DNA of 20,000 nucleotides. It comes from Psammoneis japonica. Its lineage: Eukaryota. Positions 1 through 18,168 of this stretch are shown here, piece by piece (within the stretch, counting starts at the first letter, position 1; every line of letters starts with the position of its first letter). The notes beneath the pieces are model-generated. The model worked only from the letters and a program-made list of their open reading frames with translations, ran no database searches and had not been told where the DNA came from. The position numbers and the translations under genes were made by a program. The stretch spans positions 61,916 to 81,915 of the forward strand of contig QPGO01000263.1 in the NCBI GenBank assembly GCA_008632985.1. The letters are read 5' to 3'.

Positions 1-45
1 CCTCGAAAGATCCGATCGCCCAAATTCTCCATCTCGGACACGCCC

Positions 46-444
46 ATGTTTTCATGCACCGGATCTTCCATTGAATTTGACGTTGTCGGAAAGCCAATGC
101 CAAAGTCAAGACCAAAGCATGGGTGGAATGGAAATGTTTACAATCCAAACCAAGCTGATGAGAAAGAGTTTGCAAGTGTAGCATCAGATCTCTGCCGATC
201 AAGACTAGATTCAGTGCCAAAGTTCCGTGACGGTGTGTTGTTGAAGGCTCGGATTGAATTTACTTTTCCTGGGAAGAGTCTCAAGGATACAGGAGACATT
301 GACAATCTCTGTAAGTTTGTTTTGGACAGCTTAAACACAGTGTTGTATCAAGATGATTGGCAAGTGTCGCACTTGTCGGCGAAAAAGGTACTTGCTTCGT
401 CCGAATCTGCCGGACGTACAGCAGTCGAATTGAAGCGAATTTGA
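46..444 (+). CDS. rusA: RusA-family Holliday junction resolvase (endodeoxyribonuclease RusA-like)
   Basis: N-terminal VVGKPMPKSRPK motif; catalytic GDIDNLCKFVLDSLN...LYQDDWQV matches the RusA DxDNxxK...DDxQV signature. The frame is open back to position 1, so the true start may lie outside the window. Confidence 0.88.
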   Translation: MFSCTGSSIEFDVVGKPMPKSRPKHGWNGNVYNPNQADEKEFASVASDLCRSRLDSVPKFRDGVLLKARIEFTFPGKSLKDTGDIDNLCKFVLDSLNTVLYQDDWQVSHLSAKKVLASSESAGRTAVELKRI

Positions 445-528
445 AACAAATAATTCTATACGATTATAACAAGCACTGTATCACCTACTCACTTGACGTG
501 TGCCTAGAGTAGTCATGTTTTATTTTAG

Positions 529-792
529 CCCACTTGTGTCGTGAGACAAGCACTTGCTTCGTCTGAATCGGCTGGACGCACGGTCGTCTCTCTGAACCAA
601 ATTTGAAATAGATAGTGTGTTATTTCACTTGGCATGTGCTGTGCCTTACTTTGGTGCACTTCTTTGACTGGCAAGTTGTGGAGCCGTCGGCATGAAAAGC
701 ACACATTTTTCGTCTGAATAGATCGGACGCATGACAATCTGGCGGACGCAAAATCTGGAGTCGTTGCACCGCACCAAATTTGAAATAGACAG
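529..792 (+). repeat. Two degenerate copies of the rusA 3' end
   Basis: About 550-606 translates ALASSESAGRTVVSLNQI* versus rusA VLASSESAGRTAVELKRI*. About 667-792 begins DWQVVEPSA (rusA DWQVSHLSA) and ends in the same aatttgaaa stop context. Confidence 0.8.
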
Positions 793-852
793 TTCCACAA
801 GCTTCTGTTGGTGCAGTAACACACAATTACTTTACATACATTTTACTTTCAC

Positions 853-3276
853 CTAATTCTTTGCATGTGGGTTCACGGGTTTTTTCGGACTAGTTCCAGA
901 AGCTTTGGATACAACCTTTTTCACAAACCCTGCCAAGACGCTCGTTCGCTGCTCGCCGATGGTTGACATGTTCTGATTCTTCTTGTACGCTATAACTCGA
1001 GCACCTAGACCTATGAAGGTAGGCTGTGCTCTTCCCTTCTTCTTGTTATCCAGGGGGCTCTTCATGCCAGCGTCTTCTTCCATCTTTCTCATTTTTTGCA
1101 GGCAAGTGTTTTGCACGGCGTAACAAACATTGTGGAATTCGACGGATGCATGGTCATGAATGCGTGTCGTATGCCACTGGTCTTCCGTCATGACGTGTTC
1201 TAGGAGCTCCATAGCTGCTTTAAACTTCTGTGGCTCTGCTTCACTGTTTGGAAACTTGAGGTGCAAAAGCCGCTCCTTGGATGACGAAGAAAGGTGTCCA
1301 TGCTGCTTGAAGAAACTTAGGCATACATGCAGAGAGATTTTTGCGCCTGTACTGTTTACCAAGCCATCCACTTGCTCCTGCAATGTCAGTTTCTTTTTCT
1401 TTTTGTTTGAAAACTTCTTACTCACAACTCCGGCCGAGAACAGTGTCGCGACAGCGGGAGGTCGTTGCTTTCGCGTGGAGGCCGTGACAGGCTGAGTCGC
1501 AGTGGCTGACTCGTCAGAATCCACACGACGTCGAGAAGCAGCCGGCGCGTCACCATCATCAGCAGCAGTAGCATCAGCATCTGGTGGGCTTGCAGCATAG
1601 GCAGCCACATTGTTGTTTTGAGTGGAGCCGGCGTTTTCATCAATAACGTTGCACTCGATGCCGCCGTCTCGATTGGATATTTTTTCGTCCGCAAAATCCG
1701 TCGTGCTATCTTCCTCCTCCGATGATAGGAGTTCAATATTCCTTTTCTTACTGGACTGATTGGCCTCAAGCTGAGCCATCTCCAAGTTGCGAATCGCGTG
1801 GGCTTGCTCGGAAAGCTCGGTACGTTGTGCATCACACACTGATAATACACGAGACAGTAGCTCATTCTGCTGCTTTATCTGTAAAGCAAGGTTGATGTCA
1901 CTTGAAAGATCCGGGTTGCGGTCTTGAAAGCTAGCGTCTATTTTCTTTCCCCAGATCCGAAGCACTTGTGAGGTGTCAGCCGTGTCACCATCACGAATCT
2001 TCGCTTCTGCTGCAGCACGCTCCAACGTGTACACGATTTGATGGTTTTGACGAAGCTCCTTCGAAACTTCAGCGTGATGCCGAATCATACTAGCCGTGCA
2101 AGAACGCAAGAAGGGACGCAGCTCCCCTCCTTTCAGAAATTGAGCAAGAGAGTCAGAGATCATATACAATTTTTCAATGAGACGTTCAACATCATCTTGT
2201 ACATGGCTCCCAAGGCATTCCAAGTTTGGAGCAAATTTCTTGCCGGCAGTATCATCCCAGCCCATCATCGCGTTTGCCGCTGGAAGAGTGAGCTGCGGTG
2301 TAATTCGTTTGTAAGTCTTGCCATTGGCAGCTCCGGGCGCCCATCCAACTCGAGCGTCCGCTTCTTCAACTGACACTCCTCGATGCGAATTCAAGAATGT
2401 AGCCATACCAACTCGAATAGACTTAGAAGAATAATCGTTCTGTAGAACCGGGTTGACCTTGCTTCGAACAATAGACGTCAACTTAGCGGCAACATGCTTG
2501 TCGCTCACGCTCCACAAGTCTGGAAAAGTGCACTTGTGGAGCTCCTTCTCCATGCTGTCTGGACGATAGAGACCTTTCTCACAAGAATAGAAACACGCGA
2601 AAGCATGGTAGAGATCAAAGAGATAAGACTTTTTGTTTGGTGGGAAGAGGAGTCCACACAAATCCACAGTCTTCGGCTCACACCACGTTGCTTCCAAATT
2701 CTCATAAAATAAATCCCAGAACCATTCATCATACCGTTGATACCTCACTTCCCCTCCACGTCCAGCAGCCATAGCACCCATCAAAATCCAGCAACGCTGC
2801 TGAAGAGGGCCATTGTTCATCATTGGATAATTGCATTGCAGAACAAGAGCAAGAAGCAACGTCTCGATGTCGTTTGCGAATGCACCGTTCTCGCGTCTCA
2901 ACATTGAATTTCTGTCAGACGTAAGAATAGTATTTCGCTGCTTGGCTCGAACATATTCTGAAGACACGTTTGGAACCAGGGGCAAAGTCCTTTTGTCAGA
3001 ATGCTCCATGCTAAGGAGGTTGGCTTTATCAGTGGCCTTTGCCACATCTTTGAACAGAGGCTTGTGCCACTTGTCCTCGTCTTCCCAGTCAGGGTGCTTG
3101 GGGAACTTCATTTTTAGCGCTTCTTTGACCTTTCCAAAAATTCGCTGCTTTCCGTCAATTCCTACTAGCCCGTTGGAGGGATTGTCATGCCGACAGATGG
3201 GCTCATCCGACAAGAACTTGCTGAAGCGCATCATAAGTGTCCTGAGGTGGTATCCATCCACATGACGTTCCTCCAA
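853..3276 (-). CDS. Tyrosine recombinase (Crypton-like transposase), 5' end disrupted
   Basis: Catalytic motifs in YR order: AAGRGGE (R1), EPKT (K), YSSKSIRVG (HxxR box with K for H), RVGW (H/W), KTY (candidate Tyr nucleophile), followed by a coiled-coil/low-complexity C-terminus. The ORF has no ATG start: the frame continues upstream as FDAFQDKKQDKPFHG and joins APSTISGDKSAIKR through a frameshift near 3322, with in-frame stops further upstream. Confidence 0.75.
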   Translation of the reverse strand: MEERHVDGYHLRTLMMRFSKFLSDEPICRHDNPSNGLVGIDGKQRIFGKVKEALKMKFPKHPDWEDEDKWHKPLFKDVAKATDKANLLSMEHSDKRTLPLVPNVSSEYVRAKQRNTILTSDRNSMLRRENGAFANDIETLLLALVLQCNYPMMNNGPLQQRCWILMGAMAAGRGGEVRYQRYDEWFWDLFYENLEATWCEPKTVDLCGLLFPPNKKSYLFDLYHAFACFYSCEKGLYRPDSMEKELHKCTFPDLWSVSDKHVAAKLTSIVRSKVNPVLQNDYSSKSIRVGMATFLNSHRGVSVEEADARVGWAPGAANGKTYKRITPQLTLPAANAMMGWDDTAGKKFAPNLECLGSHVQDDVERLIEKLYMISDSLAQFLKGGELRPFLRSCTASMIRHHAEVSKELRQNHQIVYTLERAAAEAKIRDGDTADTSQVLRIWGKKIDASFQDRNPDLSSDINLALQIKQQNELLSRVLSVCDAQRTELSEQAHAIRNLEMAQLEANQSSKKRNIELLSSEEEDSTTDFADEKISNRDGGIECNVIDENAGSTQNNNVAAYAASPPDADATAADDGDAPAASRRRVDSDESATATQPVTASTRKQRPPAVATLFSAGVVSKKFSNKKKKKLTLQEQVDGLVNSTGAKISLHVCLSFFKQHGHLSSSSKERLLHLKFPNSEAEPQKFKAAMELLEHVMTEDQWHTTRIHDHASVEFHNVCYAVQNTCLQKMRKMEEDAGMKSPLDNKKKGRAQPTFIGLGARVIAYKKNQNMSTIGEQRTSVLAGFVKKVVSKASGTSPKKPVNPHAKN

Positions 3277-3626
3277 TCCGTGAAACGGCTTGTCTTGTTT
3301 TTTGTCTTGAAACGCGTCAAACGTTTGATTGCAGACTTATCGCCACTTATGGTAGAAGGGGCCTAGACGCCTTCATGATTGGCGCCTCAAGGGTCGAAGT
3401 GGGCATGCTGCACGGCTGCTCTGTTGTTGCGGGTGGCTTCTGTGACAGCTGTGTGGCTGCGTCTGCTTTTTTGTGAGACGATATCTCCTCCGTGCCGTGT
3501 CTCTAGTCTCGAACTTTAGCACGGTATCGCAGAAGTCTTGCGGGTGGTGGTGAATCTGATGATGTAAAAATTCTGGCGCGTTTCAAGGTTATGTGTGTAT
3601 ACAGACATGTGATGTTATATTTACAT

Positions 3627-3667
3627 CAACTTTCAGAGAACTTTCGGGTTACTTCTTCTGAAAGTTG
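3627..3667. repeat. Perfect 11-bp inverted repeat caactttcaga-N19-tctgaaagttg
   Basis: Read directly; arms at 3627-3637 and 3657-3667. Confidence 0.8.
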
Positions 3668-3854
3668 CCAAATCTATTCCGGAAAGATTCTTCCTTGTTT
3701 GTGTCGTGCGTGACCGTCGCCGCGATTTTTTCGGTGTAGCTTGTAGAATTAATACCATGATTTTCGTATGTAGATCATTCGTGGATCATGGTACTTTCAA
3801 AATTATTACCAATTCCTACGTACCGGTACACTGTACGTCCTACTACTTCTACTC

Positions 3855-3881
3855 TAGCTACAGTAGCTACTACTGTAGCTA
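3855..3881. repeat. 12-bp stem hairpin tagctacagtag-cta-ctactgtagcta within a CTA/TAG-rich patch
   Basis: Read directly. Confidence 0.8.
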
Positions 3882-4075
3882 CTGGTACCCGGCGGCCTCT
3901 CCTGGCGAAGATTCATAATATTCAGCATAGATATATATTTTGGTCGTCGGAATCGAATATCCAGGCTTTATCGATCTAAAATCCAAAATTCTTTCATGAT
4001 TGACTTTCATCTTTCATGTTGTGGGAGCGAGAATGTTGCGGCACTGTATGACTGTGATTGAATGAACGATGCACC

Positions 4076-4550
4076 ATGGATGCCGACTTCACATCATCCA
4101 CGATGTCGACCTCATCAGGGGCGCACGTCTGTGATGGTGGCAAGTGGCAACACTGCAGCAACGATGTCACAATTGGTTGGCTTTGTCGTTCCGGGTGGGC
4201 AAGTTCGCACCGACTTTTCAAAAGCTGATCTGTCAGGAGCAAAGTTCACCCTGACGCTCACATGCCCTGGAGATTTCCCAGCCCCCATGTCTTCTGTGTC
4301 TGATGTGGTGTGGTTTCTGTTGCCGGGAGCACTGTTGCCACCTCAGCACGGAGTTCTGTGTTGCATTGGCAGTTGGCTGCCGCACCTGGAACAGCACAGG
4401 GTGGTGACATGGGATTTGAATTGCTTCGAGCTCTCACACTGCTCAGACCATCTGTGGTGCCTTTTGCACTGGATGGGCTCAGAATGAACAGGTGCAGAGT
4501 CTTGGGTCACCTGGCAACAACGTGTCATTGCAACCTTGGGGCTTTCAGTC
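4076..4550 (+). pseudogene. Hikeshi/OPI10-family gene, frameshifted 5' fragment
   Basis: Across frameshifts: GFVVPGGQVRTDFSKAD..KFTLTL..VSDVVWFLLPG..LPPQHGVL[C]/WQL..GFELLRALTLLRPS/AF[C]TGW/VIATLGLSV. This follows the Hikeshi N-terminal domain pattern (recognised from memory of the family). No C-terminal domain follows. Confidence 0.7.
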
Positions 4551-5891
4551 ATTGGCTCAAGCAGAAATTCTCTCCATTCAATGTTCAGAAATTCCAGCAG
4601 ATGGAAGACAGACAGTCATTTTACCACCAGCAGCCAGCAGGCATGCACGGGTGGTCTCCGTTGCAATCCAATGTGTGACGATTTGTTGGCCACCATGGGC
4701 ATTGACAGTGACTGTGTTCATTGACAAGTGACAAATGGTGCAGCAGCTTGGACTTTACAGCATTCACTTGGATGCCATGTCACCGCCTAAGATGCTGCTA
4801 AGCTTCAAGTGCCATCCTCAAGCTTCCAGGTCAGAAGGCACACGCACCCTGTTTTGCCAAAAGATTGAAGCTCAATGTCAACAAAGCCGAACTTGGTTTT
4901 GGCAGACATGAGTGTGAAGCAATGTGTCAAGGGGCCTTCCAATCATCTTCATGAGGTTCTGAGGGCTTGCTGTGTTAGAAAAATCAAGGTGAGAAAACCA
5001 TGCCACAGTGAACTTGTTGGAGAAAATGACTGTCCTCATCTCTCACGTTTTGCAACATTGTCTTTTTGGTTGGCTGAAATTCATCATGTTGATGACAGCG
5101 GTGAGCATTTAAGGCTGGAAGTGTCTGGCATGACATTGCCAACACGATGACAGCTGCAAAAAAGGCAACTGCCTGCACACTCATTTGAGTGGGAATGTTG
5201 CTGGGTCTGGTGCACAGCATGTGTTGAAAAAGGCAGGAGCAGGGTTGGGTGATGGCCTCAGTGCTGTGACAGGGGCTCTGGGACAAGGTGTTGAAAATGC
5301 AACAGACAGATTGGGAGCTGGATCAGGTGGTTTGGGGGTCTGCAATGTTGTTGCTGGGGGGTGGGACACAGTGTCGGCAACAAAGTTAAAAGCAGTGAGT
5401 TGCTTGACGTGCCTCAATCTTCATGATCAGTTGATTCAACAACAGCTCATGCTCACAAACTTGTCACATCTACAGTTGGGACAGTGAACCCAGAAGGAAC
5501 AGCCAAAGCAACCCAGCATTGCCAAAGGAACAGCAAGTGCTGAAGCTGTGGATTGATCTTTGCACCATCCAAGCCACTCTCCACCTTGAAAATGCCCTTG
5601 ACAGATTGACTTTGTCCCCTCACAGACTAGCCACAAAATGAGAGAATCCAAAACTCAGCATGGATTCCTTCTTGTCATTTGCGGGACTTGCTGTTCCCTC
5701 CCCCAGTGGTTGGAATGATCAGAAACCCAGCAGCACTTCACAAAAGATCCAGCATTGTGCAAAAGATCTAAAGGTTCACTTCAACTGCAGCACACTGCAT
5801 CAATGCTCTTGCTGTCTCTCCCACTCTCCTGTGCTGGTGCCAGCACTTAATTTTCCATGTTGTGCTTGCTTCATCATCAACTGTGACAAAC

Positions 5892-7093
5892 ATGAGTGTT
5901 GATGAGGTTTCTTCTGAGCCAATGCCAAAGCACAAGAGAAACAAAAACATCTTTGAGCTTGACCTTTGGATCGACCCCGACACCAGAAAGAGTGTCTTCA
6001 CTGATGATCAATTGGACAATGCACTCTCCAAAATTGCATGTGCAGAGTGGGGGTGTCCTCCTGCACAAGAGACAAACTGTTTTGGAAATTCAAGAGGTGG
6101 GAGCTGAGGAAACTGAAGGGTGGGCAATGATGAGTGGCACCCTGTGCATTCAATTGTCAAAGCAAGTGCAGCTGCCACATGGAGATTGTTCAAAATCAAC
6201 CAAACAACAATCAAATGTTCAAGGGATTGATGCACTCTCCAAAACTGCACTTGCAGAGTGGGGGTGTCCTCCTGTGCAGGAGACAAACTGTTTTGGAAAT
6301 TCAAGAGGTGGGAGCTGAGGAAACTGAAGGGCAGGCAATGACGAGTGGTGCATTGTGTGTTTTGTTGTCAAAGCAAGTGCAGCAATTGCCATGTGGAGAT
6401 TGTTCAAAACCAACCAAACAAGAATCAAATGTTCAAAGGATTGATGCCTCATGCAGACAAAATGTGTCTTTCCACAAGAGCCAACCAGCAAAACAACAAG
6501 TCTTGCAAGTCTTTGGCTCACTGTTGCATGCTGAGTTGCATCTGAGTCAATGGCTCTGAAGGGGCCTTTGACAGAATTGGAATCTTGACAAAGATGCACA
6601 GAGGAAGGCCAAGAGGATGCTTTCAAAACAAGCCAAGCAAGTGTTGATGTTGCACCTCACCAATGGAGGGAGTGGAGCAGGCTGGGAATGCATTGTGGAT
6701 GCCCTTGAGGGATGCAAGCATGACTCCATGAATCCTGATGTGCTCAACAAGCACACAACACACCTTTGTGGGGGTGAGCATTTTTGCAACAGCAACACAG
6801 AGTGATTTTATTGTGCTTTTTCTACAGAGAATCTTCTGCTGAATGGACATTGTCAACTTGCATCAGGGCAGGATTTCTTTTTTGCTGTCAACACGTTGTG
6901 CCACCACACACATGAAAAGGCTGGTTTAATGCCAATCAAGGTTGTCAGTTTGAATCAAGAGGGCCACATTGTTGTTTGCAGTGTTGCATCAAATGAAGAT
7001 GAGGAAACCCACAAACTCATCTTTTGGAGTGTCAAAAAGGCAGCAGAAGATGTTGTTCATTGATGTGTTGCTCATGGGGACAGGTGCACTTGG
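5892..7093 (+). pseudogene. Mutator/MULE transposase N-terminal half (WRKY/FAR1-like Zn finger plus first catalytic Asp), decayed
   Basis: C-x-F-x2-QSKC..EIVQ..PH Zn-finger-like segment, then FYCAFSTENLLLNG[HC]Q..FFFAV[N]T[LCHH]T.EKAGLMPIKVVSLNQEGHIVV[CS]V.SNEDEETHKLIF. This reverts to the MULE pattern VDTSY..GL.PI.V...NQ.GH.V.YGV if only CG and TA are restored. D1 codon at 6890-6892. Confidence 0.7.
6020..6444 (+). repeat. Tandem duplication, two units of 211 and 214 bp
   Basis: 6020-6230 and 6231-6444 align end to end (about 90% identical, one 3-nt indel). Confidence 0.95.
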
Positions 7094-12389: not shown

Positions 12390-12806
12390 TGTCTTCAGCG
12401 ATTCCTCAAAGGACTTAATTCCTCATCATCTTGGTGGCTGATGCGCGATCTTTTTCTGTTGCTCTCTCGCTCTCGCGCTCGCCGTTTTTGATTTTGCAAA
12501 ACTGCCGCCAACCGGGAGACGGATAGGCGGTAACCTACGTATGAGGTCAGTACTTTTGCTGTATGTAGAATCAATACTACGCCTACATGCAAGATTCATT
12601 ATGATATGTACAGATTTGTATAAACCTATTTCAGCAGGACTCAGTTCGCGTCAAGTTCGCGTGTATCGACTGATTTGAGATTGACGATCGACTGACATTG
12701 GGCTTCACGTACGCTGGAACACCGAACGCATAGTTGATTGCCATATTCTTGTTTTGTTGCTTGCGACAAAGAGAGAAACCAAGAGAACTTATCGAAGAAT
12801 AGAACC

Positions 12807-14632
12807 ATGGCGTCTGCTAAACAGGGTGCATATGCCCAAGTCTCAGAGGAGGCCTCCGAAAAAACGGCGGTACCCATCAGTGCGGCTGAACCGATTGGTG
12901 AAAAAGTTGAACGTTTGGAGGTGACGCAGACGTGGGCCAGAGGAGAAGTCCAAGAAGATGGATACAAGGATGTCTACTTTGCAGTGGCATTCTATATACA
13001 ATTAGTGGCAATGATGGCGACCGCGTTTTTGTTTGCGATCGGAGCCATTGAAACTTCTTCTGACAGCGGTGACGGCGATTGGAACCGGAGGCTATCCGAT
13101 TACGTGTCCGGAAACTACAACGAGAATAGCAACAGCTACAATGACAACAACAACTCTAACGCCGGTGGAGAGGACGATGACATTTCTGACGAAGACTTTG
13201 GCAAGCTGCTAAGTGTTATTGCCCTATCTCTTGTGCTTTCGCCCGTCTTGGCTGTGCTTGCACTCGGCCTCCTCCGTGAGCATGCCCGTTTGCTAATCAA
13301 GGCTTCGTTGTGGTTCAATATCGGATTATCGCTTGTGCTTTGTTTGCTTTCTCTGGTGACTGCTCCACTTGCGGCCTTTCTCTACGGAATTCTCACGCTG
13401 ATTCTGGTGTGTTATGCAAAGGCTGTCTGGCACCGCATCCCATATGCCGCTTCCAACTTGCGATGTGCCGTGACAGCCGTCAAGGCCAACCTGGGAATTG
13501 CCCTCCTTTCCTTTGGTGCAGTCCCCTTCAATATTGGCTGGTTCTTTCTATGGGGCTACACCCTCTACAAGACGATGCAAACCGACTTTATGAAGGATCA
13601 AGTGGAAGAAGAACCGAGCTCATTCAATGCCAACGATGACTTCAACAGCGACAGTTCGACGGAAACGCTGTCTGCCGCGGGGACTTGCGTTATCATGCTC
13701 TTCTTGCTATCATTGTACTGGACGTCTGAAGTCATAAAGGTACGTCCCAATTTTGAGGTTGTTATGTCTAACATTTGATTGGGTAATCTCAATTGTGTTC
13801 TTGTATTTCGTCTCGTCACGACAGAACACCATTCATACAACAATTGCCGGTGTCATTGGCACGTGGTGGTTCCTCCCTGAAGAGGCTTCGTCGTTTTGCT
13901 CGAAACATCTAACCGACTCGCTTGCTAGGTCTACAACATATTCGTTTGGATCCATTTGCTTTGGAAGTTTGATTGTTGCTATTCTAGAGGTTCTCAAGAA
14001 CTCGCTTCGCAATGCCCGGAACAACCGCAACAGCCTGCTGCGATGCATTGTCATTTGCATACTTGCATGGATTGAAAGATTGGTGGAGTACTTTAACAAA
14101 TGGGCCTTTGTTTACGTGGGTTTGTATGGCTACAGCTACTTGGAGGCCGGGAAAAATGTGATTACGTTGTTTCGAGCACGCGGTTGGTCCGCGATTATTA
14201 ACGACAACTTGGTTTACAGAATGCTCGGAATGATGTGCCTGGCAATTGGGCTTATTACGGGTTTGATTGGCTTTTTGTTTGCGCTCACACTGGGTCTTGC
14301 TAGTGACGGGCTAGTCGCTGCTGCGGTAATGTGAGTGGCGTGTTGCTCATTGTTGTTGCATTGGTCTTTTGCGCTTGCTCACCTTAGATCCTTTTCCGTT
14401 TGTTTGTTTTGCAAGTCTGTCCATACTGACTGGACTCATCACGTCGGGGATCATGATGACCGCTGTTGGAAGCTCTGTTGACTCCATCATTGTTCTGTAT
14501 TGTGAGGCTCCGGCCGAGTTTGAAGAAAACCATCCAGATCTGCACCGGGAGATGCAAGCAACATGGAGTGAAGCCTGGTCTAGTGTTATCACAGCGGAAG
14601 CAGAGGTCGTCCCATCGGCTAACGTGGTCTAG
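12807..14632 (+). CDS. Choline transporter-like (CTL/SLC44/PNS1 family) membrane protein, 3 exons: 12807-13739, 13825-14330, 14416-14632
   Basis: Motifs YKDVYFAVAF, RIPYAASNL, YWTSEVIKN, AGVIGTWW, SFGSICFGSLIVA, YFNKWAFVYVGLYGYSY, GWSAIINDNL. Introns 13740-13824 (GTACGT..ACAG) and 14331-14415 (GTGAGT..AAG), 85 nt each, restore the frame. Confidence 0.93.
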
Positions 14633-14949
14633 AGAGCAGGCCCATAGTTTGAGAAAAGTTTGGACGTGTGGGAATACGTACAATTTTTATTGGGTTTGAT
14701 AGTACTTCTAGTTGAAAACGTTGCATAATTAATGATCCTATTTTTTGGCAGTAGCTACGAACAAAAAGCTGAAGAGCTACAGGGGGCCTACTCTGCAAGC
14801 AGTAAGTCGAGGATGGCTGAGCAGTCGTAGAAACCTAAAAATACATCTCAGTCAAGCAGCAGCCGTTATGTTGAGTGCTCCAAAGCAAATTACCATGAAC
14901 TATCGCTGTGCATGAACTACATCAACCTGCTTTCTCCTCTCTCTAGTAG

Positions 14950-17900
14950 TTGGACGGTCGGTCGAATCTGAGCTGCTTGGTTGGTCCCATACGCCGCGCC
15001 TCTCCTCATCTTCCCCCGACTTTTCTGCTTCCACCTATTGCTACTCCGCTCAAGTCTGCGCCGACGAAGATAACTTTCACTCGGCCTACTCCAAGCTCAC
15101 CTCTGCGCTTCCTGTTGCTGCCGTTACTCCTGAGCGCCTTCCTACCATCCTCAAGCTCTACCCTCCTCGCCTGCACCCCTCCGACCTACCTAATCCTCCT
15201 TCAACTCGCTCGGCCTCCTCCCTTCATAATGAGCCTATTGAGCTCTCCTCCGATGCTCTTCTTTCCGCTCTCTCCAAATGTAAGCCTGGGACTGCTGCCG
15301 GTGTCTTTGCTGATTCTACCGACCTTTTCAAGTCCTACGCCCTCTATTCTACCAAAACCCCAACAGGAGTTGCTCAACGCCCCTGCTTGTCATCCTTTCA
15401 TGAGCTTGTCCTTCTTCTGCTCCATGGCTCCATTCCTCCCTCCGTCCATTCCTTATTTGCTTCGAACTACTTTGTCGCTCTGCATAAAGATGCCAGCGAC
15501 CTCAACAAGCTTCGCCCCATTGGCGTCGGTGCTGCTCTTCGTCGCATTGCCGGCTCCGTCGTCATGACTCTCTTTGGTTCTGCATTTACCGAATGCCTCC
15601 TCCCAGATGGCCAATTTGGCATTGGTGTCAAAGGTGGCCTCGATTATCTCATTCACTCTGCTCTTGCCAACATTGAACGATGTCTTTCTTCTGCCGACTC
15701 TACCAAGGCTCTTCTTCTTCTTGACCTCGTCAACATGTTCAACGAAGCATCCCGAGATGCCTGTCGACACGTTCTCACCTCCACCCCTGCCTTCCATCCT
15801 CTGCTTCCTTTTTTTGACCTTCCACGTCAAAGTTCCAATACATGTTGGTGTCGCCGACCCGATTCTTCCTGGGGCTCCTTTCTTCAAGAAGAGGGATTTG
15901 CCCAAGGATGCCCTCTCGGCCCTGTTTTCGCCAGCCCAGTCCTCTCTCTGGTTCTTCGTCCGATTAACCAAGAGCTTCAAGAACATGTCCCTGGCCATTC
16001 CTCTGTCTCAGTTGGCTCCTACATTGATGATGCTCATGCTTTCCTTCCCCATTCCGTGCTCCCATGGTTCCTTGAACGCTTCTCCGCCCTCGGTGCCCCC
16101 TGCGGAATCTCCCTCAACCTCCGTAAAACCAAGATCCTCACCTCCATTGCCGGTGTTAGCCCCATCCCTGCTCTTCCCCCTTCCCGTGCCGATTCTCTCC
16201 GTGCTGCACTTTCCTTCTTAAACCCCACCAATGACCCCTCTCACAACCCCGAACTCACCTCTGGTGTTCGCTTCCTTGGACAGCCCCTCGGCTCCCACGA
16301 CTTCGCCACCTCCTTCCTTTCCGACACTTCCTCTACTCTCTCCGACAAAGTTGACATGCTTCTCACCCGTCTCCATGACAAACAAACCCAGGCTCAACTC
16401 TTCAAGCACTGTTTTGTTCCATCCTCTGCTCACCTCCTTGGAGCTGACTTCTGCTGCAACTTCGACCCTGACAATCCTCCCGACCCCTTTCTCTGGACCT
16501 CTCCGTTTCAAGATTTCCTCCTCACCGTTGCTCACCGCTTTCTACACTGCGTCACTTCCTTCGCCGCTCCTTTTCCCGACCATTCTATTGCCATCACTTT
16601 CCTTCCTGCCTCCTCAGGCGGGTTTGGTCTCCGGGACCCAACAGCTGCCGCCATTCCTTCCTTCTTGGTGTCGCTTCTCCGCTCGTTCCGCTTTGCTTCG
16701 CACGGTGTCAGCCTGCCATCTGGCGCTTCTGTTTCCCTTCCGCGCTGCTTTCGGCTCTCCCTGTCTTCCTGGTCCAACCCTTGCTCTTCCCTGCGACTCT
16801 ACATGCTCTTCCGCCGTCATGCTCCCGTTCTGGCTTCCGCCTCTGCCCTTTCCTCTTCTTCCCTGGCTGCCCTGGTTAAATCGGCCACCCTCCCCGGCCT
16901 GGCCCATCGTCTCTGCCATGAACATCAGCAACAAGCAGTGACCTCCATCCTTGCTAACTCATCTTACGACGTACAATCTTCGCTCCCTTCATTGCTGTCT
17001 CCGCTTACAAGCCTCCCTCTTCATTCCTTCTCTCATCGCTTTCCAAGCTCCCGCCTTTCTTCGGACGCCTGCGCTGTTGCCGCCCTTCGTAAGCTTCGTC
17101 TCCCCATCCTTCCTCCGTCCCTTGTCAACACTCCCTGTCCCTGTGGCCATGCCATTCTGGATGCCTGTGGTGATCATGCCTTTTCTTGCCGCCGTGCTCA
17201 CAAGTCCAAGCTTTCCAATGGTCTCCGTGACACTGTTTTCATCCTAGCCCAAACTTTGGGTCCTCTTGCAGAGTTCTGTCGATCCCCCAATGACGTTCAT
17301 CTTGAACCCACCAACCTGCTCCCCACCCGCCCGCTCCTCCGTCCCGCCGATGTCGGCATTTCAATCCCCCCTCCCGCCTCCCTTTCCGCTCCCTCCCGCC
17401 ACCACTACATTGCAGTGGACGTCACCGTCCCTCAAGCTTCCTCTCGCCCTCCTCCAGGTCTGCCTGCCCCCTCTTCTCCTGTCTTAACTGAGGCACACCA
17501 CTCGAGCGCGAGATTGAAGTTTCTTGGCCCCTCTACTTCCTCTGCCGATGGATCCCTTGTTGTTTCTTCGCTTGACAACAATGGCATCTTCCTGCTCCCC
17601 TTCACTGTAGATCACCTTGGTGGTCTCGGCTGCTTTGCCCACCGCTTGCTCTTTGGTTCTACATCCCCCTCCGTCTGCTCTCAGCCCAAGCCACCCTGGT
17701 CCTCTTCCTCTGACCTTCGTCACTCCGATGCCTCCTACTCCGCCTTCCTCTACGCTTTATCGTCTCCGTCTGCAATTCTTCCCTCTGCTGACTCCGCATG
17801 GCGTCGCCTGTCCGCCGATCGCTTTGGAAGCACCTACCGTACAGCCACCCCATCCCAGTGGGCCACCCAAACTCTTGGCTACAACGTTGTTCTTCACCTT

Positions 17901-18085
17901 TCTACGCACATCCTCCGATTCACCTCCTCTCTCCCTGCCCCCTCCTCACCCATACCTTCCACAAAACGCCCTTCGTCTTGCGTCCTTCGACCCTTTTACT
18001 CTACCGTCCCTACAGCTACCTCCGTGCCTCCCTCTGCTGTTACCTTCCGCTCTACATAGGCTTCCTTAATCTTCTATTTTAAATA
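14950..18085 (+). mobile_element. 5'-truncated CRE-clade (RLE-type) non-LTR retrotransposon
   Basis: Abrupt switch to a strongly C/T-rich sense strand. One reading frame is open from 14916 to 18059 with no ATG at its start. No clear TSD or poly(A) tail was seen, so ends are approximate. Confidence 0.85.
15387..18059 (+). CDS. Reverse transcriptase + CCHC knuckle + restriction-like endonuclease (partial; frame extends upstream to about 14916)
   Basis: RT motifs KLRPIGVG..LRR, QFGIG..GG, LDLVNMFN, QGCPLGP, YIDD, LNLRKT, RFLGQP, LP...GGFG. C-terminal CPCG..D..GDHAFSC, RPAD and VDVTV are typical of CRE/SLACS/MoTeR-like elements. Confidence 0.9.
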   Translation: MSSFHELVLLLLHGSIPPSVHSLFASNYFVALHKDASDLNKLRPIGVGAALRRIAGSVVMTLFGSAFTECLLPDGQFGIGVKGGLDYLIHSALANIERCLSSADSTKALLLLDLVNMFNEASRDACRHVLTSTPAFHPLLPFFDLPRQSSNTCWCRRPDSSWGSFLQEEGFAQGCPLGPVFASPVLSLVLRPINQELQEHVPGHSSVSVGSYIDDAHAFLPHSVLPWFLERFSALGAPCGISLNLRKTKILTSIAGVSPIPALPPSRADSLRAALSFLNPTNDPSHNPELTSGVRFLGQPLGSHDFATSFLSDTSSTLSDKVDMLLTRLHDKQTQAQLFKHCFVPSSAHLLGADFCCNFDPDNPPDPFLWTSPFQDFLLTVAHRFLHCVTSFAAPFPDHSIAITFLPASSGGFGLRDPTAAAIPSFLVSLLRSFRFASHGVSLPSGASVSLPRCFRLSLSSWSNPCSSLRLYMLFRRHAPVLASASALSSSSLAALVKSATLPGLAHRLCHEHQQQAVTSILANSSYDVQSSLPSLLSPLTSLPLHSFSHRFPSSRLSSDACAVAALRKLRLPILPPSLVNTPCPCGHAILDACGDHAFSCRRAHKSKLSNGLRDTVFILAQTLGPLAEFCRSPNDVHLEPTNLLPTRPLLRPADVGISIPPPASLSAPSRHHYIAVDVTVPQASSRPPPGLPAPSSPVLTEAHHSSARLKFLGPSTSSADGSLVVSSLDNNGIFLLPFTVDHLGGLGCFAHRLLFGSTSPSVCSQPKPPWSSSSDLRHSDASYSAFLYALSSPSAILPSADSAWRRLSADRFGSTYRTATPSQWATQTLGYNVVLHLSTHILRFTSSLPAPSSPIPSTKRPSSCVLRPFYSTVPTATSVPPSAVTFRST

Positions 18086-18168
18086 AGAAGCCTAACCATG
18101 GCAATCACAACGCCGAACGCACGCACACTCTTCTCTTCATTGTCCTTCGGTTCCTTGCAGCTTACATC

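Follow-up and report, generated by a model that had tools for sequence, protein, structure and literature searches.

Introduction

To our knowledge, no other class of eukaryotic DNA transposons is as poorly understood as the Cryptons, and nobody has yet dissected the route proposed for them, in which a circle is excised and integrates through a Holliday junction. Here we analyze a Crypton-like locus at the left edge of a 20,000-nucleotide (nt) stretch of Psammoneis japonica DNA (GenBank assembly GCA_008632985.1, contig QPGO01000263.1, positions 61,916 to 81,915, forward strand), in which a gene for a putative tyrosine recombinase faces a gene for a RusA-type Holliday-junction resolvase. The whole stretch is called the window below, and coordinates count from its first base.

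Among described elements, CryptonS of oomycetes and Phaeodactylum has a C-terminal region that is conserved, terminal direct repeats of 5-6 bp and, in some cases, an additional open reading frame (ORF) for a C48 peptidase, according to the accessible part of Kojima & Jurka (2011, PMC3212892). One such element, CryptonS-1_PTri, is 4671 bp long with 4 copies, and RusA is not mentioned in that part of the paper (PMC3212892). Our literature search, which did not extend to Repbase or subscription journals, found nothing linking a Crypton or any other eukaryotic transposon with RusA.

Our data suggest, with a probability that we put at about 65%, that the region is one slightly decayed copy of a repeated Crypton-like DNA transposon of at least 3.8 kb, cut by the left window edge and carrying two convergent intronless genes, one for an FLP/Ndc10/Crypton-type recombinase and one for RusA. 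Both proteins could be identified, their genes are linked and amplified together, and a second lineage, which is deeply diverged, has retained the pair.

Results

The two genes lie tail to tail, as the first-pass annotation of this DNA had described them: rusA at 46-444 on the forward strand when counted from its first ATG, and the main recombinase ORF at 853-3276 on the reverse strand, with stops 408 nt apart. The product of the first ORF is a RusA resolvase by its matches to PF05866 in Pfam (E 3.1e-12, 47.6 bits against a cut-off of 22.8) and to PHROG 140 (E 2.3e-14). The part of the gene inside the window is its 3' part (1-444, forward strand), 147 codons in a frame that is open to base 1 and closes with a stop at 442-444; translation from the ATG at 46 gives 132 amino acids (aa), and the same frame from base 1 gives 147 aa. 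Numbering residues by the translation of 1-441, the catalytic segment (295-357, forward strand) comprises D99 (295-297), D101 (301-303), K105 (313-315) and D118-D119 (352-357), and both D99-I-D101-N-L-C-K105 and D118-D119 were invariant in an alignment of the window RusA with four relatives. In an alignment profile, D99, D101, K105 and D118/D119 lined up with D70, D72, K76 and D90/D91 of E. coli RusA (1q8r, a weak PDB match at E 0.42), of which we take D70, D72, K76 and D91 to be the catalytic residues. The protein is predicted to act as a junction-cutting dimer. The closest phage RusA proteins were about 30% identical to it (best E 2e-7; 11 records).

The start of rusA very probably lies left of the window, because relatives have an AT-hook and a longer N-terminus where the window protein begins with PRKIRSPK. 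These relatives are 185-304 aa long and place the AT-hook directly before the nuclease domain (RGRGRPRK in the metagenomic relative L002, described below, and RRRGRPR in P0010), in alignment with the first residues of the window protein. Many also begin with a motif like VIDLCDDGDD, found with a loose search pattern, and this VIDL-acidic motif presumably resembles a SUMO-interacting motif. The earlier description of an intronless rusA with intact acidic motifs is thus borne out by the ORF, the domain matches and the invariant residues, except that the ATG at 46 is probably internal.

The main recombinase ORF encodes 807 aa. An N-terminal helical and a catalytic domain make up aa 1-470, followed by a middle part that is coiled or disordered and by a C-terminal region conserved over about aa 650-790. 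Pfam and PHROG gave no match for this protein, sequence-profile searches against the PDB returned chance-level matches only, and an Atlas search with the C-terminal region likewise gave chance-level scores (maximum 0.80). An exhaustive profile search found a family of 1487 representative clusters, formed at 50% identity, at E<=1e-3, with 742 at 1e-10 and 217 at 1e-30; none of the 49 full-length relatives scanned reached any curated Pfam cut-off. Folding with AlphaFold from a 126-sequence alignment produced a model with a predicted local distance difference test score (pLDDT) of 93.7 and a predicted template modelling score (pTM) of 0.89, as against a pLDDT of 51.6 from a 10-sequence alignment. 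The top-ranked Foldseek matches of this model were all recombinases at weak E-values (best 0.011, for FLP; none <=0.001), and FLP, which is the 2-micron plasmid's recombinase, was also the best structural match by VIA-align, both in a second comparison and in a wide search over 48,161 chains. Within the limits of a predicted structure, the two-domain fold with its catalytic domain, together with the conserved residues described next, confirms the second protein as a tyrosine recombinase.

The catalytic core of the recombinase spans 2311-2760 on the reverse strand and contains R173 (2760-2758), K202 (2673-2671), K285 and R288 (2424-2413), W312 (2343-2341) and Y322 (2313-2311). In the 126-sequence alignment, position 173 was Arg in 121/122 relatives, position 202 was Lys in all 124 and position 288 was Arg in 124/126; position 312 was His in 68 and Trp in 51 of 125 (119/125 together), and Tyr at position 322 was universal (126/126). 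K202 falls between the model's strands 193-200 and 205-211, the place of the catalytic lysine in such enzymes. Five of the six positions of the R-K-H-R-H/W-Y set are therefore present and conserved, the exception being the His of HxxR: position 285 is Lys in 78, Arg in 43 and His in only 1 of the 126 relatives, that is, Lys or Arg in 121/126. Since this substitution runs across the family, the SKSIR box of the window protein appears to be a family-wide K/R-S-[IL]-R variant of HxxR and not a product of decay. The box had been called non-canonical, which it is, with the correction that K285 (K-S-I-R), not serine, occupies the His position. Lysine at this position recalls topoisomerase IB.

The motif order of the protein and leads from Atlas suggest that the recombinase is Crypton-like. 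Rows of the published CryptonS alignment were matched in the order GRxxD, RxKT..QG, TSHSFRRG, DRGxW and FxY, as far as the accessible part of the source goes (Kojima & Jurka 2011, PMC3212892). Feature-based neighbours in Atlas, which serve as leads only, were oomycete hypothetical proteins (0.97, 0.96), NDC10_II (0.95) and Phage_integrase/DUF3504 (0.91-0.94). One full-length relative, P0012, comes from an MMETSP transcriptome labelled Rhodella violacea. Its transcriptome origin indicates that the recombinase family has transcribed members, and, barring contamination, the family may extend outside the stramenopiles.

The only sequencing runs containing the stretch were three DNA runs of one sample, and Logan contigs of one of them, X1, were aligned to bases 1-6000; run X3 gave no aligned contigs. 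A total of 241 contigs aligned, 69 of them at >=99% identity, 63 at 95-99%, 67 at 90-95% and 42 below 90%. Summed contig depth was 779-937 over rusA (1-400), 845-981 over the recombinase gene (2201-3200) and about 480 upstream of the recombinase gene (3401-3800), compared with 61-116 in the flank (4001-5000, single contigs 56-68), so that both genes stand at about 5-16 times flank depth. The first-pass annotation had named a single-copy host rusA as grounds for abandoning a two-gene element; here, rusA is not single-copy, its excess depth being of the same degree as that of the recombinase gene. The 3' ends of both genes are bridged by one contig (376-1317, depth 266, about 4-5 times the flank). 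Contigs joining distant parts of the unit, for example 2008>3227 across 38 filler letters, have the appearance of deletion derivatives.

Upstream of the recombinase gene, non-coding sequence of the repeated unit occupies 3377-3823, with the change from repeated to unique sequence at about 3823: depth drops after 3800, eight contigs diverge behind 3823, a unique contig begins at 3793, and the excess depth ends some 450 nt upstream of where the recombinase gene starts. Bases 1-3823 contain only rusA and the recombinase gene, and no reverse transcriptase or DDE transposase was found in the unit. The base composition of the element is no different from that of its flanks. A perfect 9-nt inverted repeat (3753-3761 and 3785-3793), 30 nt inside the boundary at 3823, is a candidate recombinase-binding site.

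A second lineage with the same pair emerged from a metagenome scan with the recombinase alignment, which yielded two contigs, L001 and L002, that are 98.5% identical over 2855 nt and represent one lineage. Their recombinases are 36-37% and their RusA proteins 46-48% identical to those of the window, and rusA is again convergent with the recombinase gene, lying about 105 nt after the recombinase stop. The L001 recombinase has two in-frame stops (nt 736 and 2452) and that of L002 a 1-nt deletion (nt 228), while the rusA ORF is open in both; independent lesions of this kind are the manner in which transposon copies decay. A composite of the two contigs is 3966 nt long; it extends about 500 nt upstream of the recombinase gene and about 250 nt past the longest RusA ORF, and no further gene was recognisable in it. 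L001 and L002 gave no circular or tandem signature: there was no terminal overlap, and the composite did not close into a circle.

The window copy itself is damaged at the 5' end of the recombinase gene (3277-3376, reverse strand), where the first ~35 codons sit in two other frames upstream of 3276. Three upstream frames each hold one consecutive piece of the homologues' N-terminus, beginning at an ATG at 3376-3374. An additional C after 3361 (724.3 of 890.7 depth) and an additional T after 3323 (675.5 of 727.8 depth) are present in most copies; together with the split N-terminus, this indicates that the window copy has lost one base at each place, both within the first ~20 codons. The deletion at 3323 is probably real and not an assembly slip, because the residual depth (~52) is about that of one single-copy contig. 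The earlier call of a Crypton-like tyrosine recombinase is accordingly upheld for the fold and the conserved residues, and needs amending for the gene, which is not intact at its 5' end.

As a separate observation, each of the 14 differences between window 617-1592 and one X1 contig (about 4-5 times flank depth) is a C>T change at CpA or a G>A change at TpG. Many occur in pairs as CAC>TAT (617/619, 641/643, 700/702, 796/798), a context like that of repeat-induced point mutation. Over all contigs, by contrast, transitions were symmetric.

Between the two genes, the last ~75-100 nt of rusA are present three times in tandem (381-452, 531-616 and 665-795). The second copy, or stub B (531-616, forward strand), covers the last ~75 nt of the gene, is 74% identical to 381-452 and can still be read as a RusA C-terminus closed by a stop; in a 10-codon block shared with the live rusA end, it has five third-position changes and no replacements, as if it were derived from a once-functional, diverged rusA. 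The third copy, stub C (665-795, forward strand), is by sequence comparison more decayed and carries insertions. The stubs are also present on a contig of about 4-5 times flank depth, whereas the metagenomic relative has only ~105 nt between its genes and lacks them. When the stubs were weighed as attachment-site remnants, no further copy of their motif was found elsewhere in the window.

A profile built from five RusA sequences matched 254 proteins, about 40 of them closely, at 35-50% identity over the greater part of the domain. For a quick tree of 116 rows, six of 120 hits were removed beforehand, either for want of the DxDNxxK pattern or for being shorter than 100 aa. The window RusA and L002 fell on a 43-row side that includes all 14 rows with both the VIDL-like motif and the AT-hook. 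On the other side were rows named Skeletonema marinoi, Fistulifera solaris and MMETSP, all with signal-peptide-like N-termini, together with short bacterial-type proteins.

The proteins with signal-peptide-like N-termini, named from Skeletonema marinoi, Fistulifera solaris and MMETSP transcriptomes, form a separate eukaryotic class of RusA of 230-320 aa (P0219-P0240, for example P0227, P0224 and P0228). They may be organelle-targeted junction resolvases of diatoms. Searches of the literature on RusA with diatoms, MOC1 or protists found nothing relevant.

The remaining window is ordinary eukaryotic nuclear DNA, with a DAO-type oxidoreductase, a choline-transporter-like gene, a reverse transcriptase ORF and a RING-finger gene. 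The reverse transcriptase ORF (15387-18059; PF00078, E 1.7e-8) lies 11.5 kb outside the repeated unit and belongs to a separate retroelement, and the block around it (14500-18100) has a strong strand skew (GC skew about -0.4). The choline-transporter-like gene is split into two overlapping ORFs in different frames (12738-13778 and 13753-14334), by an intron or a frameshift. A 211-nt tandem repeat at 6019-6447, in two copies of 88% identity, creates repeated ORF fragments.

Discussion

The joint excess depth of the two genes, the contig that bridges them and the retention of the pair in a diverged lineage all support the two-gene element that had been suspected here. Several points weigh against this reading or limit it. 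No termini, target-site repeats or empty site were seen for the element, whose left end is outside the window, and 3823 may mark where this copy was truncated or inserted, and not a terminus of the family; the eight loose ends behind it agree on a consensus at only 0.67. The 5- to 16-fold excess is one of Logan contig depth, which is not a copy number, in a sample that is possibly the window's own source. The recombinase gene of the window copy is frameshifted. Only one independent lineage with DNA context is available, L001 and L002 counting as one. Two further recombinase/RusA cluster pairs share a source-contig size (3467 and 3855), but among 19 recombinase and about 42 RusA clusters such agreement is too weak to count, and the identities of these pairs co-vary poorly. 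Within the large recombinase family, a linked RusA was seen in the window and in L001 and L002, and the key split of the quick RusA tree had a Shimodaira-Hasegawa-like approximate likelihood-ratio test (SH-aLRT) value of 92, under the 95 mark. Finally, that RusA and the recombinase cooperate is something we infer, and nothing shows it.

We nonetheless consider the two-gene transposon the best account of the locus when set beside other explanations. The pair might belong to a larger mobile element or endogenous virus that extends to the left, and form only its right-hand portion; the recombinase would then be the integrase and RusA a replication or recombination gene, as in lambdoid phages. Such an origin would suit a rusA frame that runs off the window edge, where the left boundary is unseen, and some relatives do lie on longer contigs (up to 8450 and 11043 nt for RusA, and one of 6844 nt for the recombinase). 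Integrase and RusA also coexist in phages, as annotations of the phage RusA matches indicate; DLP12 and phage 82 have both. We regard this origin as unlikely, however: the 3966-nt composite holds these two genes only, and most contigs with either gene are 3-4 kb, as would be expected if a small repeat breaks assemblies. Moreover, no recombinase relatives were found among 2.9 million viral contigs, this recombinase was present in 0 of 54 viral loci with a RusA relative, and a viral structure library returned weak matches only (best E 0.015).

The small size of the unit and the structural similarity of its recombinase to FLP could alternatively point to a nuclear circular episome of the 2-micron type, whose recombinase would control copy number or resolve multimers. 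In that case RusA would remove branched intermediates of replication, and integration into chromosomes would be secondary. Because the genes converge, an integrated copy has its upstream regions outermost, which would fit a circle that opened in its head-to-head region. Against this stand the lack of terminal overlap in L001 and L002, whose composite does not close, the absence of a recognised replication gene, and the several contigs that diverge into other sequence at 3823, which resembles chromosomal insertion; we therefore think an episome very improbable. We give still less credence to rusA being a host or captured gene without a role in mobility, whether co-duplicated with a neighbouring Crypton (by segmental duplication, for example) or part of a domesticated host gene pair. 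A host source does exist, since diatoms have the separate host-like class with signal-peptide-like N-termini, including named species, and Cryptons pick up extra ORFs such as the C48 peptidase, according to the accessible part of the CryptonS paper (PMC3212892). Yet an element whose recombinase is only 36% identical has the pair with unchanged orientation and the same class of spacing, and the excess depth ends shortly beyond the recombinase gene instead of continuing over a long segment. Element-type RusA proteins, with their nuclear-type N-terminal motifs, group separately from the host-like class, and frameshifted, nonsense and deleted copies speak against a domesticated pair.

If the locus is a two-gene transposon, its recombinase would excise and integrate the element via a Holliday-junction intermediate, as proposed for Cryptons. 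A dimer of the element's RusA would then cut junctions or branched molecules that the recombinase leaves unresolved, making the reaction irreversible; such molecules could result from exchange at sites with few bases in common, or from multimers formed by the excised circle. A stricter version, which we offer tentatively and think more doubtful than the transposon itself, is that a recombinase with Lys or Arg at the HxxR His performs only the first strand exchange, at sites sharing few bases, and leaves a Holliday junction. RusA, brought to chromatin by its AT-hook and possibly by a SUMO-interacting VIDL-acidic motif, would cut this junction, so that transposition would be an obligate two-enzyme process of exchange and then cutting. 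The element would in that case be the first eukaryotic transposon known to encode a junction resolvase of its own, one taken over from bacteria or phages.

A family of elements that retains a resolvase gene next to its recombinase gene would be natural evidence that the four-way junction is a real and limiting intermediate, and it would offer a compact two-protein system that could be reconstituted in vitro. It would also be an instance of a nuclease from bacteria or phages that, within a transposon, has become adapted to the eukaryotic nucleus. The analysis further brings to light a large recombinase family that Pfam does not recognise.

Comparison with known systems

DIRS, Ngaro and PAT retrotransposons have a reverse transcriptase and RNase H, whereas the window unit has no reverse transcriptase domain. 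FLP and the Crypton-derived Ndc10/Cbf2 are only about 10% identical in sequence to the window recombinase; FLP resides on the autonomously replicating 2-micron plasmid, which has no resolvase gene, and Ndc10 is catalytically dead. For a junction made by a recombinase and finished by another activity, a mechanistic analogy may be drawn with CTX-phi, whose integration involves an exchange by XerC only that is finished by replication; for the window element, the analogy serves as a model only.

In the accessible part of the work on CryptonS of oomycetes and Phaeodactylum (PMC3212892), the recombinase is the sole recombination enzyme of the unit's mobility, as it appears to be here, and the motif order GRxx[DE], xKT...Q, [ST]S-x-S-[FI]-R-x-G, RxGW, Y (supplement 4) is shared. 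The differences from CryptonS, as far as that part of the paper describes it, lie in the second gene, which is RusA here and (sometimes) a C48 peptidase there, in the Lys or Arg that replaces the HxxR His throughout the present recombinase family, and in the typical TATGG or CTGTAAG termini, which were not seen at the one visible boundary.

Phage RusA proteins (DLP12 1q8r, phage 82, PF05866) share the domain and the catalytic Asp and Lys residues with the window protein, and the rusA of phages, too, occurs together with a tyrosine integrase. Besides the low identity (about 30%), the window rusA differs from these in its eukaryotic nuclear context and in the N-terminal extension with AT-hook and VIDL-acidic motif found in its relatives. 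Furthermore, it stands directly beside the recombinase gene as part of a two-gene unit, and not within a 40-kb phage genome.

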